Shown: positions 17,930 to 20,912, counted from the stretch's first letter. The stretch: DNA of 21,095 bases from a virus (IMGVR_UViG_2534681832_000043); one strand, 5' to 3'. Numbers and translations: made by a program. Notes: generated from the sequence alone by a model not told the origin.

Positions 17930-17983
17930 TTTCTGATATCACTGCCACAGCAAAACACCAATTTCGAGACAAGTACGCGCGCG
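17930..17983 (+). repeat. copy A of a diverged ~70-bp direct repeat ending in TACGCGCGCG
   Basis: ATGTGAAACAGGAAG...TCTGATATCACT...TTTCGAGACAAGTACGCGCGCG aligns with copy C at 20844..20912 at roughly 75-80 percent identity; a partial copy B lies at 18230..18258. Confidence 0.55.
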
Positions 17984-17991
17984 AGGGGTAT

Positions 17992-18015
17992 CAGTTGCAA
18001 AATTTTTTGCAACTG
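17992..18015. promoter_or_regulatory. 24-bp near-perfect palindrome (operator-like)
   Basis: CAGTTGCAAAA-TT-TTTTGCAACTG: 11-bp arms with a 2-bp spacer, directly after repeat copy A. Confidence 0.4.
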
Positions 18016-18229
18016 CGTCCGACCAGTACGCACACGATGGCGGGGGATACCATGAAACTGTTCTCTACACGAGACAGAGTGGTGGTGATGTGTTGATTAT
18101 CGGCGTATATGCGCACAGGACGCGCTATGACGATGTTTTATGCGGGTACACCAATCACATGTATCTGGTGTGATAAATCGCGTTACATGACCTCTCTGTT
18201 GTGCTGGTGGTTATCACGACGTTCTGAAT

Positions 18230-18258
18230 CTGGCTTTTGTCTGATATTTTGCGACAAG
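18230..18258 (+). repeat. partial copy B of the TACGCGCGCG-ending repeat
   Basis: TCTGATATTTTGCGACAAGTACGCGCGCG. Confidence 0.45.
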
Positions 18259-18452
18259 TACGCGCGCGTAGCATCGAAATTATCGGATGGCGTATGCTGC
18301 TGGCAATATGAAGACCGATAGTATTAACCGAAAAGCGATTAAGGAGTGCCAACTTTTCAGTAGAGAAACTAGCCAGCACAGGGAAATGTAGAAATTACCC
18401 AATTAATAGGTAAAAGTTATTGACACACCCTGTAGTGGATAACGATATGAAT

Positions 18453-18475
18453 AAAAACCACATATAGTGGTTTTT
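18453..18475. promoter_or_regulatory. palindromic operator-like site upstream of the Abi gene
   Basis: AAAAACCAC-ATATA-GTGGTTTTT (9-bp arms), flanked by two GTGGATAAC motifs about 98 bp apart; one reads TGTGGATAA, identical to a DnaA-box consensus on the opposite strand. Confidence 0.3.
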
Positions 18476-18647
18476 CGTTAGTGATGATAGTATCTATGTT
18501 AGTTTCCTAAGTAACTGTGCATTGACATGTGGATAACTTCGGATAGAGTTACAATCAACTGAGCCCGGCCCCCTGGCTTTATCTTGTCTTAGATGAGAAA
18601 TTGTTATGGCCGGGCCTTCTTGTATCTGGAGGTAGGAAACCTTTTGT

Positions 18648-19610
18648 ATGGCTGTTCCGGTTAAGGTTCATAAAGAATATGATGAACTTGTCGATTTATT
18701 GCTGTCTCGGGGTATGGATGTGCCAGATCGCGAACATGCTATCAAGAAAATCTCACAAGTAGGCTACTACCGATTATCAGGCTTTTGGTACCCCTGCCGA
18801 ATCCCCCATATAACAACAGACAATATTAGAACCAGACTCGATCAGGTTCGTCCAGGTACTAATTTTCGCGCAGTATATGACCTCTATTTATTCGATAAAA
18901 ATCTGCGTTTGCAGATGATGAATGCGTTAGAACGCATTGAGGTTTATGTTCGGTCAGTTATTGCTCATGAGCTTGGTAAGATATCTCCTTTAGCATATCT
19001 TGATGACTCGCTAATAAATCCAAAACACTTTAGACCACGTTCCCATGGTCGCCCAAGCGCCAGAGAAGAATGGATAAATAAACATAATGCCGAGATTGCT
19101 AAAAGTCGCGAAGACTTTATCAAATGGCATGAAAACAAGTACGAAGGTCTTCCTTTCTGGGTGGTTATTGAAGTGTGGGACTTCGGCTTAATGTCAAAGT
19201 ATTATGCGATGCTAAAAGACAGCTATCGCAACAGGATACTATCTAGGCTAGGGATAGCGGCAGGCAATGGAGCTATCTTCCAAAACTGGCTTAGCGCAAT
19301 GAATGTGCTAAGGAATCGGTGCGCTCACCATTCACGCATCTGGAACAAGGTCAACGAACCAAGATTAATGCCTTTGCCAAATGAGCCGTACTTTGAACAA
19401 TTAAATATGAATGATGATGCGTACGAAAGAATGTACGGAATGATCGCTGTGTTATGGTTTTTAGTGAAAAAAATTGGACCGGGATCTGACTGGATAAAAA
19501 AAGTTGCCAACCTTGTAGATAACAAGCCTAACTTACCAGGATGTAACCTGACAGCCATGGGATTACCTGATAATAACGGTTTCCCAAGGCATTTATTTGA
19601 TATTGAATAA
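18648..19610 (+). CDS. Abi_2-family (AbiD/AbiF-like, HEPN-type) abortive infection protein
   Basis: 320-aa ORF. The segment LRNRCAHHSRIWN carries the Rx4H-type HEPN motif characteristic of the Abi_2 family (from memory). Size and AT-rich composition fit. Confidence 0.65.
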   Translation: MAVPVKVHKEYDELVDLLLSRGMDVPDREHAIKKISQVGYYRLSGFWYPCRIPHITTDNIRTRLDQVRPGTNFRAVYDLYLFDKNLRLQMMNALERIEVYVRSVIAHELGKISPLAYLDDSLINPKHFRPRSHGRPSAREEWINKHNAEIAKSREDFIKWHENKYEGLPFWVVIEVWDFGLMSKYYAMLKDSYRNRILSRLGIAAGNGAIFQNWLSAMNVLRNRCAHHSRIWNKVNEPRLMPLPNEPYFEQLNMNDDAYERMYGMIAVLWFLVKKIGPGSDWIKKVANLVDNKPNLPGCNLTAMGLPDNNGFPRHLFDIE

Positions 19611-19611
19611 A

Positions 19612-20067
19612 TTATAGCGATGGCGCTGAATGTAGCGCCACTGATAACTTTTCAGCATTGCTTCCCTGACGCTTCCACGCGCTATAAATATCTTTATCCC
19701 ATGCCTTACCAGCTTTTGTTTGATAGCCTGCTTCATTGATCCGTTCAGCTATCACGCGCCCATTATCAAATCCCTGTCGGATGGTATCGGCAATGATCTT
19801 TATAACTGCCGTTTCGTTATATGGCTTTGGTGGGATGTTCGGCTTTCCGGCAATAAGCGACGCAGCGGCTTTTTCCATGCGCTCCACCAGCCCAAGCATT
19901 CGTGAATCAATAGACTTTTCCGGCTGTCCCAGCTTCATGCGAATCGCATCAACAAGCCAGGAGGTTTTATCCCCTCCAGAAGCGAGAACAGACCGATTAA
20001 ACTCATCCTGCAATTCAGATGGGATGCGGAACGCGACCAGATTAGATTTGCTCATTGCAAAGACCAT
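19612..20067 (-). CDS. ribbon-helix-helix domain protein (putative transcriptional regulator or iteron-binding protein)
   Basis: 151-aa ORF; the true start may be the second ATG at 20055 (MSKSNLVAFRIPSELQDEFNRSV, an RHH-like beta-strand-helix). The C-terminal segment IAERINEAGYQTKAGKAWDKDIY resembles recombinase-type DNA-binding regions. Divergent from the iteron array. Confidence 0.5.
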   Translation of the reverse strand: MVFAMSKSNLVAFRIPSELQDEFNRSVLASGGDKTSWLVDAIRMKLGQPEKSIDSRMLGLVERMEKAAASLIAGKPNIPPKPYNETAVIKIIADTIRQGFDNGRVIAERINEAGYQTKAGKAWDKDIYSAWKRQGSNAEKLSVALHSAPSL

Positions 20068-20167
20068 ATCAGTGAGTAATATCCATACAGTATACCACTG
20101 TATAACACTGTTATACGCTCAAATATTAGCCAGAAAATAACGGACCAATCACAAAGCTATCGCTGTG

Positions 20168-20290
20168 TTGTTGGTTCAGAGCTGGGCTGTGTTGGTTCAA
20201 AATGAGTTGATGTTGGTTCAATATTTTAGAAAAAACACAATAAAAACAACGATCTTTACAAATTGAACCAACTGAACCAACTGAACCAAC
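20168..20290. repeat. iteron array: three direct GTTGGTTCA copies at 21-bp spacing plus six tandem inverted TGAACCAAC copies
   Basis: Direct copies at 20170, 20191 and 20212. Six contiguous 9-bp inverted copies fill 20264..20290. The array lies between the divergent RHH and PerC-like genes. Confidence 0.7.
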
Positions 20291-20326
20291 ACCTTTTTGC
20301 TTATCTATATAATCTGAGAGACAGAA

Positions 20327-20614
20327 ATGATAAGGGACAGGAAAGCTGAAGAGCTGGAGTCAAAAGGGCTATACCGGAGAGCTGCCGCACGATGGGCAGA
20401 AGTCATGATGCTGGCAGATGGCGATAAAGAACGTGAACATGCAGCAAACAGACGCTCTGAATGTATCCGTAAGGCGGCACGCCCACCAGCAACTACAGAC
20501 AGATTCGGAGATTTAAGACAGGCAGTTAAGCGAACTCATTCGGCTCTTGGTATGGATGAGGAAGCGAGAGGGTACTTCAGGCGTTATCGCGATAAAGATT
20601 GCCAGAGACAGTAA
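20327..20614 (+). CDS. PerC-family transcriptional activator-like protein
   Basis: 95-aa ORF. The N-terminal segment AEELESKGLYRRAAARWAEVM resembles the conserved PerC/Pch motif, from memory. Confidence 0.55.
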   Translation: MIRDRKAEELESKGLYRRAAARWAEVMMLADGDKEREHAANRRSECIRKAARPPATTDRFGDLRQAVKRTHSALGMDEEARGYFRRYRDKDCQRQ

Positions 20615-20843
20615 TGCTCTCTCTGTTTTGGCAAATTACCCCTCACTTTGAAGGGATCGGAGCTATAAAAATGGTGTTATCCGGCTTCCTGCATTGCAGG
20701 TTTTCGAAAAAATCAATGGGTTAGGTCATCGTGCAAATTTGCACTCTGCCAGCCAACGCAATTTCTCGTTGGCGAAAATATCAGGTATTTACTGAACGAA
20801 CGGTCTACCAGTCTATTCAGTTACCAGTTGCACATGGCTGTTT

Positions 20844-20912
20844 CATGTGAGAACGGAGGTTTTTTCGGACATCACTATTGGGTACAGCAATTTCACGAGC
20901 AATACGCGCGCG
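20844..20912 (+). repeat. copy C of the diverged ~70-bp direct repeat ending in TACGCGCGCG
   Basis: ATGTGAGAACGGAGG...CGGACATCACT...TTTCACGAGCAATACGCGCGCGC, collinear with copy A. Confidence 0.55.

Follow-up and report, generated by a model that had tools for sequence, protein, structure and literature searches.

The stretch of DNA analyzed here, referred to as the window, comprises 21,095 nt of the virus IMGVR_UViG_2534681832_000043, and all coordinates are counted from its first letter. The window is an Escherichia coli P4-like phage-satellite island that bears P22-type ejection-protein genes. Towards its attR end, copies of a short direct repeat, designated A, B and C in the order in which they occur, are interspersed with an Abi_2 gene, a gene for a 151-aa protein, a set of iterons and a PerC-family gene (Table 1). 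What is new here is that the core of this repeat corresponds to a seam in the small-terminase gene (terS) of the Sf6 type, that it acts as a crossover point, that its host is a P4-like element with P22-type ejection proteins, and that the core alone recurs in other mobile elements.

A preliminary description of this DNA had reported two collinear copies, corresponding to A and C, together with a partial third copy at 18230..18258. The similarity of A and C is indeed well beyond chance, as local alignment yields 60 identities in 82 columns (73%, z = 12.8, with none of 2000 shuffles as good), and the copies are paralogues in the true sense. Taken alone, the part upstream of the common core is also significant (29/36 identical, z = 11), and the cores themselves are identical at 20 of 23 positions. 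A repeat finder placed the copies at 17955-17983, 18240-18268 and 20884-20912, with 76-79% identity to the reference over 29 nt; the third copy exists and ends at 18268 rather than 18258. Moreover, the 15-mer ACAAGTACGCGCGCG, with up to three mismatches allowed, occurs four times in the window (17969, 18022, 18254 and 20898), always on the plus strand, against an expectation of ~0.58, and four copies were reached in none of 100 shuffles. The additional occurrence is a partial core, A2, which adds a fourth copy to the three described. By eye, a weak fifth copy, CAGTACGCGCA, is visible near 17890.

Copy B has flanks that bear no relation to those of A and C (z about 1). Instead, B is 83% identical over 46 nt to C', a copy that in other islands takes the place of C downstream of perC (at 10092 in L018; individual loci are given L numbers). 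Because B resembles C' and not A or C, the families A/C and B/C' have only a core of ~23 nt in common, which in all copies conforms to ATTTYnnGAsmArTACGCGCGCG. Core B is followed by TAGCATCGAAAT, an imperfect inverted copy of its left arm. Three full cores are present in the same order and orientation in every island examined, with differing flanks, and the upstream block of A and C was found in the same islands only. When one copy is compared across islands, its core proves no better conserved than the flanks; for instance, the C core differs at 2 of 23 positions in strain 042 and the B core at one, and A is polymorphic at two sites. Between cores A and A2 lies a 53-bp segment containing what had been taken for a perfect 24-bp palindrome, which turns out to be imperfect (Table 1). 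Its center reads A4T6 in the window and A6T4 in three other islands (L001, 20690-20712; L018; L020), so that it looks flipped between strains, and further variants carry AAAAAGTTTT or a 1-nt deletion.

Over the copies, reading frames are ragged and without good start codons, their length varies between strains, and frame-breaking indels separate A from C; the possibility that the repeats are paralogous small genes was rejected on these grounds. In some islands a frame through copy A is open for 135-150 codons (L018, 7868-8275; L003, 8769-9221) and ends in ...GGYHKTVLYxxQSGGDVLIIGVYAHRTRYDDVLCGYTNHMYLV*, which by eye resembles the C-terminus of a RelE/ParE-type toxin, with no profile match; in the window the tail of this frame (18039-18176) is frameshifted. 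The covariance models of Rfam 15 gave no match at 17900-18300 or 20840-20920 at E values up to 1, and no complementarity of the repeats to the C4 or isrK RNAs of the island was seen by eye.

An exact-pattern scan of IMG/VR for the 23-mer returned 56 loci, about twenty of which represent the same island type. In most of the others the 23-mer lies within an open reading frame (ORF) of 130-220 aa, in a constant frame reading ...EF(R/S)(D/E)QYARARE... or F-x-D/E-Q/K-Y-A-R-A, and one such ORF matched the Pfam family Sf6_terminase (PF20901, E = 1.6e-45) and the terminase small subunit family phrog_1482 (E = 5.5e-55). The terS protein of the Sf6-like E. coli phage HF4s is identical to Sf6 gp1, and its gene reads ATTTTCGCGACAAGTACGCG at nt 163-183. 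To this place core A aligns with 17/18 identities (nt 166-183) and core B with 19/20 (nt 164-183); C' also aligns at nt 164-183, in the range from 17/18 to 19/20, and for all three none of 500 shuffles was as good. Core C aligns to the same place, at a level that is not significant (z = 1.2). No match to the frames over A, B and C was found in Pfam or PHROGs, and a custom terS profile aligned to 9-15 residues only (E = 0.14-16). Given the ragged frames and the absence of an extended match, the copies are neither terS genes nor recognizable pseudogenes; they are a tag of ~20 nt that is identical to one spot of terS.

In the phage gene itself, this spot is a boundary. Among 80 Sf6-type terS genes from IMG/VR, the main alleles are strongly diverged upstream of the core, in the part for the DNA-binding domain, and over the ~50 nt inspected from GACAAGTACGCG on, no difference separates the 423-nt allele from the 426-nt one, which is the commoner. 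This switch from divergence to identity indicates that the core sequence is a natural crossover point in phages. In addition, the last 89 nt of Sf6-type terS alone are common to ~400 E. coli genomes, which, together with the allele junction, shows that terS is a mosaic with the core as one of its seams. The core has the sequence of the conserved junction between the DNA-binding-domain and oligomerization-domain parts of terS in P22-like phages. The alleles also switch at the FRDKYA codons, and the small-terminase gene is in this respect a three-piece mosaic.

Recombination junctions were located by comparing 26 related loci with the window. Recurrent homology breakpoints fall at 17331/17770, 18277, 18313, 18333, 19645, 20169, 20410, 20860, 20888, 20912 and 20982, three of which lie at the edge of a core: 18277, 9 nt past core B, recurs in at least eight loci; 20888, found in L036, is 2 nt ahead of the first base of core C; and 20912 is the final base of C, after which a 1.75-kb Doc-toxin cassette follows in E. 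coli 042. The enrichment of junctions at cores is ~4-fold, a rough estimate from a small sample. When ~100 copies, a limited sampling, were classified by their left and right flanks, hybrids between A and A2 were found in two loci (L003 and L137), where the 53-bp segment with the near-palindrome is deleted, and a hybrid between A and B in L141, where 285 bp are deleted. A new left flank is joined to C in L036 and L153, and in E. coli 042 it is the right flank of C that is new. At these junctions the core is kept entire. That crossovers occur at the cores is demonstrable, and the cores mark where accessory modules are swapped.

The A-C interval is itself a mosaic, and searches of Pfam and PHROGs revealed no recombinase or transposase in it; the Abi_2, 151-aa gene, iteron/perC and C-attR segments are each replaced independently. 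Of the readings offered in the preliminary description, that of a recombination product is borne out, since the copies coincide with junctions, A×A2 and A×B hybrids exist, and foreign DNA abuts core edges. That A and C are the ends of one discrete inserted cassette has to be given up: the two do form a direct repeat around the interval, but there are at least four copies, the interval does not move as a unit, and no A×C allele lacking the cassette, as an empty locus with a single copy would be, occurs among the classified copies. B×C hybrids were likewise not encountered in this limited sample.

The core is not confined to this island. An unrelated integrase/AlpA/DUF927-primase island (L031 and its relatives) has two isolated cores, one 3 nt past the alpA stop codon and the other past the primase terminator. 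In a metagenome scan that covered at least 120 loci, at least ~45 distinct isolated cores, beyond terS genes and the E. coli island, were present among the matches listed. Several of them adjoin integrase, DUF927 primase or ParA genes, and others adjoin ordinary chromosomal genes, as judged from sequence appearance. Ten of the 45 loci have secondary copies on the same strand within 250 nt (13 in all, against an expectation of 0.8, among the matches listed), and many isolated cores continue into ...CGCGCGCG, 0-8 nt and GCGCGAGGG, as does copy A (AGGGG). Because the collection is huge and the pattern holds ~38 bits, some isolated cores are perhaps due to chance; the arrays and the common tail are not. 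In GC-rich soil contigs (L086, L116, L160, L189, L198 and others), two to four direct core copies lie 50-140 nt apart, often with another (CG)n tract and AGGG(G) behind them, and these are possibly a distinct, undescribed repeat family with a terS-like core.

The features of the window are collected in Table 1. The interval between A and C, described as AT-rich, has a GC content of 0.435, which is only modestly below the 0.476 of the whole window. Both the Abi_2 gene (E = 3.6e-52) and the PerC-like gene expected there are confirmed by Pfam. Other genes take the place of the Abi_2 module in L002, L018, L019 and L020, and the module of the 151-aa gene is bounded by 19645 and 20168. The latter gene had been introduced as an 'RHH gene with its iterons', of which the iterons stand and the RHH assignment finds no Pfam match. 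Seven TTGGTTCA units occur in the window against 1.0 expected, and in the sister island L001 the primase gene has related sequence downstream of it (15699-15819). Given this relation and their position beside attR, the iterons are regarded as replication iterons rather than operators of the 151-aa gene, and they are probably a crr/ori-like replication site, in a layout that recalls the ori/crr pair of P4, where crr likewise lies next to attP/attR. The roi fragment, derived from a DNA-binding/antirepressor gene, is located in a non-coding stretch between perC and copy C. The cargo found after B and after C or C' differs by strain, and these sites behave as two adjacent hotspots for accessory genes, examples being L002 (9155-10638), L018 (10348-13803) and L019 (8399-8599), with a Doc toxin and its partner, a pRiA4b ORF-3 protein with an HNH endonuclease and a Dcm methylase, and a small helix-turn-helix (HTH) protein among the products.

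Table 1. Features of the window in and around the repeat-bearing region
Feature	Position	Strand	Remarks
Tyrosine integrase gene	1-1260		Window opens at its start codon; annotated as such in sister locus
P22-type gp14, gp7, gp20 and gp16-like ejection-protein genes	11342..17314	+	Pfam DUF2824, P22_gp7, Inj_translocase; phrog_770
Variable leftward gene, phrog_2651	17377..17814	-	Replaced between strains from 17332 to 17769
Copy A; core 17961-17983 ATTTCGAGACAAGTACGCGCGCG	17908..17986	+	Found in 535/5426 E. coli genomes
Near-palindrome, 11-nt arms CAGTTGCAAAA / TTTTGCAACTG, 2-nt center	17992..18015		Self-complementary at 22/24 positions
Partial core A2 GACCAGTACGCACACG	18021..18036	+	Fourth copy; partner in A×A2 deletion hybrids
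Chi site GCTGGTGG	18203..18210	+	36 nt upstream of core B; kept in most island copies inspected
Copy B; core 18246-18268 ATTTTGCGACAAGTACGCGCGCG	18229..18273	+	From repeat finder and 15-mer search
Abi_2 gene	18648..19610	+	Exchangeable module from ~18278/18334 to 19644; PF07751
151-aa gene ('RHH' of the preliminary description)	19612..20067	-	Weak match to phrog_30270, E = 2.9e-4; no Pfam match
Iterons	20171..20289		Three direct TTGGTTCA (21-bp spacing) and three inverted (9-bp spacing)
PerC-family gene	20327..20614	+	PF06069, E = 2.6e-33
Lambdoid phage roi gene fragment, 60 nt	20666..20725	+	83% identity with roi genes from HK620, CUS-3 and Stx phages
Copy C; core 20890-20912 ATTTCACGAGCAATACGCGCGCG	20841..20916	+	Found in 237 genomes; some matches end exactly at 20912
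attR-side integrase repeats GTGTACATAAGGGTGTACATAAT	20998..21020	+	In L001, motif also upstream of int at the opposite end of the island

In complete E. coli genomes the element is flanked by yicC and dinD, and the window ends just beyond a pair of GTGTACATAA repeats (20998-21020). Its backbone is P4-like, with an AlpA regulator, AntA, Ash and a Zn-ribbon/Toprim/DUF5906 primase, and Rfam detects the int-alpA, isrK and C4 RNAs; thus an integrase, an AlpA-type regulator, an alpha-like primase and a C4/CI-type immunity RNA, the marks of P4-like satellites, are all present. The matches to isrK and the C4 antisense RNA (4466-4654) lie within an annotated Ash-family ORF (4085-5113), and this P4/P1-type RNA immunity region is found in an element without P4 late genes. 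Among the island ORFs scanned, no sid, delta or psu families were found, the P2 cos site not having been searched for, and in place of the sid/delta/psu module stand homologues of P22 gp14, gp7, gp20 and gp16. Terminase, portal and capsid genes were also absent from the ORFs scanned. The gp20-like gene, which is intact in sister islands, is interrupted by an IS3-family insertion sequence at 13393-14606, with rve domains and an ALIL frameshift pseudoknot.

At the junction of the gp20 and gp16 genes, 232 nt (15147-15378) are 95.7% identical to HF4s, and outside this patch the proteins of the island and HF4s are only 32-59% identical, from which it follows that the island exchanges DNA with the Sf6-like phage group. 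Full-length Sf6-type terS prophages are present in 232 of 5426 complete E. coli genomes. In one IMG/VR contig (L059, 3300045988_004969), an HF4s-like structural module is fused at the 232-nt patch to the island gp16 gene and A-B region; as it is either a real phage-satellite recombinant or a chimera of metagenome assembly, it was not used as evidence. The conserved A-B region had no match in 50,697 phage records, and a scan of one genome per species with the gp16-like protein as query gave distant phage homologues only, with no second species that has the A-B region. A search of the available literature found no paper describing this island type or the core motif. The window contains 12 Chi sites against 0.64 expected from shuffles, in both orientations, for example at 610, 1200, 7606, 15917 and 18203 on the plus strand and at 6464, 7390, 10415, 11046, 15913, 19891 and 20490 on the minus strand, a density ~2.5 times the E. 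coli average. This abundance may protect a linear or concatemeric form of the island, or render it recombinogenic.

The reading that we tentatively favor, with a confidence that falls a little short of even, is that the cores are terS-derived linkers that mediate modular exchange by homologous recombination. The islands, and probably their helper phages too, bear the same 23 nt in one orientation, and homologous recombination can therefore cross over inside the core. Such a crossover, made by host RecA or by a phage recombinase, would couple the left side of one molecule to the right side of another, with the outcome that accessory modules for defense or regulation are swapped, added or deleted at the attR end. 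The Chi site near B and the other Chi sites of the window may favor RecBCD-dependent exchange. The linker account explains the uniform orientation of the copies, the retention of the whole core where both flanks change, and the deletions between neighboring cores; moreover, no enzyme dedicated to the task is required, nor does the interval encode one. The cores probably originated from a captured fragment of terS, and recombination at them is more plausibly homologous than site-specific.

Several observations weigh against this account. Many recurrent breakpoints (18313, 18333, 19645, 20169 and 20410) lie away from the cores. Only ~20 nt are common with terS, so that the proposed origin depends on a short match, the very one by which the terS genes had been located, and beyond it the flanks of the island copies show no terS similarity at the DNA level, their upstream flanks being at background, also when compared with the terS protein profile with the motif masked. 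The local Sf6-type terS reads TACGCGAAGGCA, not TACGCGCGCG, and a donor allele is therefore not matched exactly. A length of 23 nt is also at the lower limit for efficient RecA-dependent recombination. Two facts are left unexplained, namely that exactly the same 23 nt, with no other part of terS, have been kept in four independent flank contexts, and that the same core stands alone in unrelated mobile elements, often in arrays, for which neutral linkers account poorly.

These last facts bear on an alternative that we hold to be unlikely, in which the cores, perhaps together with the upstream block of A and C, would be pac-type sites for the Sf6-type small terminase of a helper, by which the island would be packaged headful as a concatemer. 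The island would then enter P22-like virions, supplying its own ejection proteins. A broader form of the proposal, also doubtful, is that the 23-nt core, single or arrayed, would be recognized by Sf6-family small terminases, and that terminase-less satellites of E. coli and of unrelated bacteria would thereby be packaged. The absence of terminase, portal and capsid genes beside P22-type gp14, gp7, gp20 and gp16, the HF4s patch, and the match of the core to the helper-type terS gene itself are all consistent with packaging, as is the location of the pac site within terS in P22-like phages (PMC9611059, PMC8022706). Reviews speak of a specific pac and, for P22, give its place as terS. All copies have one orientation, and paralogous copies retain the same 23 nt despite unrelated flanks; isolated cores, often in arrays, reside in integrase/primase elements that show no Sf6-type terS, and no core is present in P4, whose helper P2 is of the cos type. 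In Sf6 itself, the pac was reportedly placed by Leavitt et al. 2013 (Virology 440:117) in the part of terS that encodes the DNA-binding domain. There is also a precedent in the PICMIs (phage-inducible chromosomal minimalist islands), which are packaged as concatemers without packaging genes and for which the packaging site was not identified (PMC10803314).

Against packaging stand the Sf6-type terS genes of E. coli, which are without the CGCGCG tail, and the finding that between islands conservation is no higher in the core than in its flanks. In one satellite with an isolated core (L029), a Terminase_2-type terS-like gene is recognizable by eye, with no confirmation by profile search. The core corresponds to terS residues 55-62, just beyond the DNA-binding domain, which is commonly set at residues 10-53. 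The P22 pac, AGAGAAGATTTATCTGAAGTCG, was also sought in the upstream block of copy A, where the best resemblance, 15/22 at 17920, is at chance level, as the maximum in shuffled windows averages 14.9.

That the cores are inert relics, leftovers of decayed terS or other phage genes that have no present role and coincide with boundaries incidentally, is distinctly improbable. The ragged, strain-variable frames without good starts, the lack of a terminase match in Pfam and PHROGs, the 60-nt roi fragment beside copy C and core substitutions at about the background rate would all fit decay; random decay, however, should not leave the same 20-23 nt four times and nothing else of terS, and neither the uniform orientation, the junctions exactly at core edges and the hybrid copies nor the arrays in unrelated elements would be expected from it.

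We give very little probability to the core being an operator for an island regulator, such as PerC, or the site at which a site-specific recombinase crosses over, with integron-like cassette movement. B and C' do form an imperfect inverted repeat around a (CG)4-5 tract (ATTTTGCGAcaaGTA-CGCGCGCG-TAgcaTCGAAAT), junctions keep the entire core, and in one soil contig an integrase gene lies ~700 nt from an isolated core; yet copies A and C lack the right arm, and the P4-type integrase, the only recombinase, has repeats (GTGTACATAA) unrelated to the core. As for regulation, seven sigma-70-like promoters were predicted in 17300-21095 against 8.8 expected, none of them over a core, and no terminator lies at any core; the genes adjoining the copies have no consistent orientation, no Rfam family matches, and none of the 10 ORFs scanned in L031, the unrelated island with two isolated cores, matched PerC. 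The suggestion of duplicated regulatory sites in the preliminary description has no backing from the same promoter and orientation results. Relics of att sites from tandem integrations were rejected as well, again because the integrase repeats bear no relation to it.

If the linker reading is true, a fragment of a helper-phage gene has become a connector for the reshuffling of satellite cargo for defense and regulation, including Abi, toxin-antitoxin and restriction-type genes and PerC, and it would offer a sequence handle for tracing the movement of anti-phage genes between satellites and phages. If packaging were its role, the core would answer how headful helpers choose terminase-less satellites, a question that is unresolved for PICMIs (PMC10803314). 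It would, moreover, establish which sequence is recognized by a small-terminase family that is very widespread, and make the island a previously undescribed kind of satellite of P22-like phages, with its own ejection proteins and a bare pac mimic. On either reading the island itself merits attention. To our knowledge, the combination of a P4-type backbone with P22-type ejection proteins is not among the four satellite families for which current detection tools reportedly search (de Sousa et al. 2023).

Compared with known systems, the arrangement recalls integron attC arrays, in which repeated sites of the same orientation lie between exchangeable cassettes. Unlike integrons, the island has no integron integrase or attC-like structure, some of its cassettes lie on the opposite strand, and the core is not where many of its boundaries fall. 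Piracy of packaging sites is well established: P4 carries the cos site of P2, and both cos- and pac-type Staphylococcus aureus pathogenicity islands (SaPIs) and PICIs (phage-inducible chromosomal islands) exist. As with these, a satellite without the full packaging machinery must offer a signal that its helper accepts, which here would be a piece of a helper-type terminase gene; pac-type satellites usually bring their own terS, unlike this island, and we know of no bare pac mimic defined for a headful helper. The PICMIs resemble it as integrase/AlpA/primase islands without genes for capsid remodeling or packaging, and they are packaged headful; they are, in contrast, ~6-kb Vibrio elements that depend on virulent phages (PMC10803314). 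The island is ~18-21 kb and, unlike them, has a P4-like immunity region with C4 and isrK RNAs as well as ejection-protein genes.

A study of defense hotspots in P2 phages and P4 satellites is said to have found a conserved backbone around rapidly exchanged anti-phage genes, and Abi_2, the Doc toxin, HNH/Dcm and other cargo are likewise located near one end of a P4-like element here. The differences are that this backbone is without sid, delta and psu and that its hotspot is subdivided by terS-like cores. With respect to Sf6-type terS itself (PF20901), the core matches nt 163-183, whereas the island copies differ in having neither a profile match nor an intact ORF. Another parallel is to the linker homologies of lambdoid and P22-like phages, known from the modular-evolution model of Susskind and Botstein and from the junction sequences in comparisons of HK97 and HK022. 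In contrast to those linkers, the island cores present a terS coding fragment in a non-coding context, several copies within 3 kb, and arrays in unrelated elements. Like them, they are short conserved sequences at module boundaries, of conserved orientation, where homologous recombination would reassort unrelated neighbors, and the likeness extends to the phage gene, as one and the same sequence forms a junction in terS alleles and, likewise, in the island.

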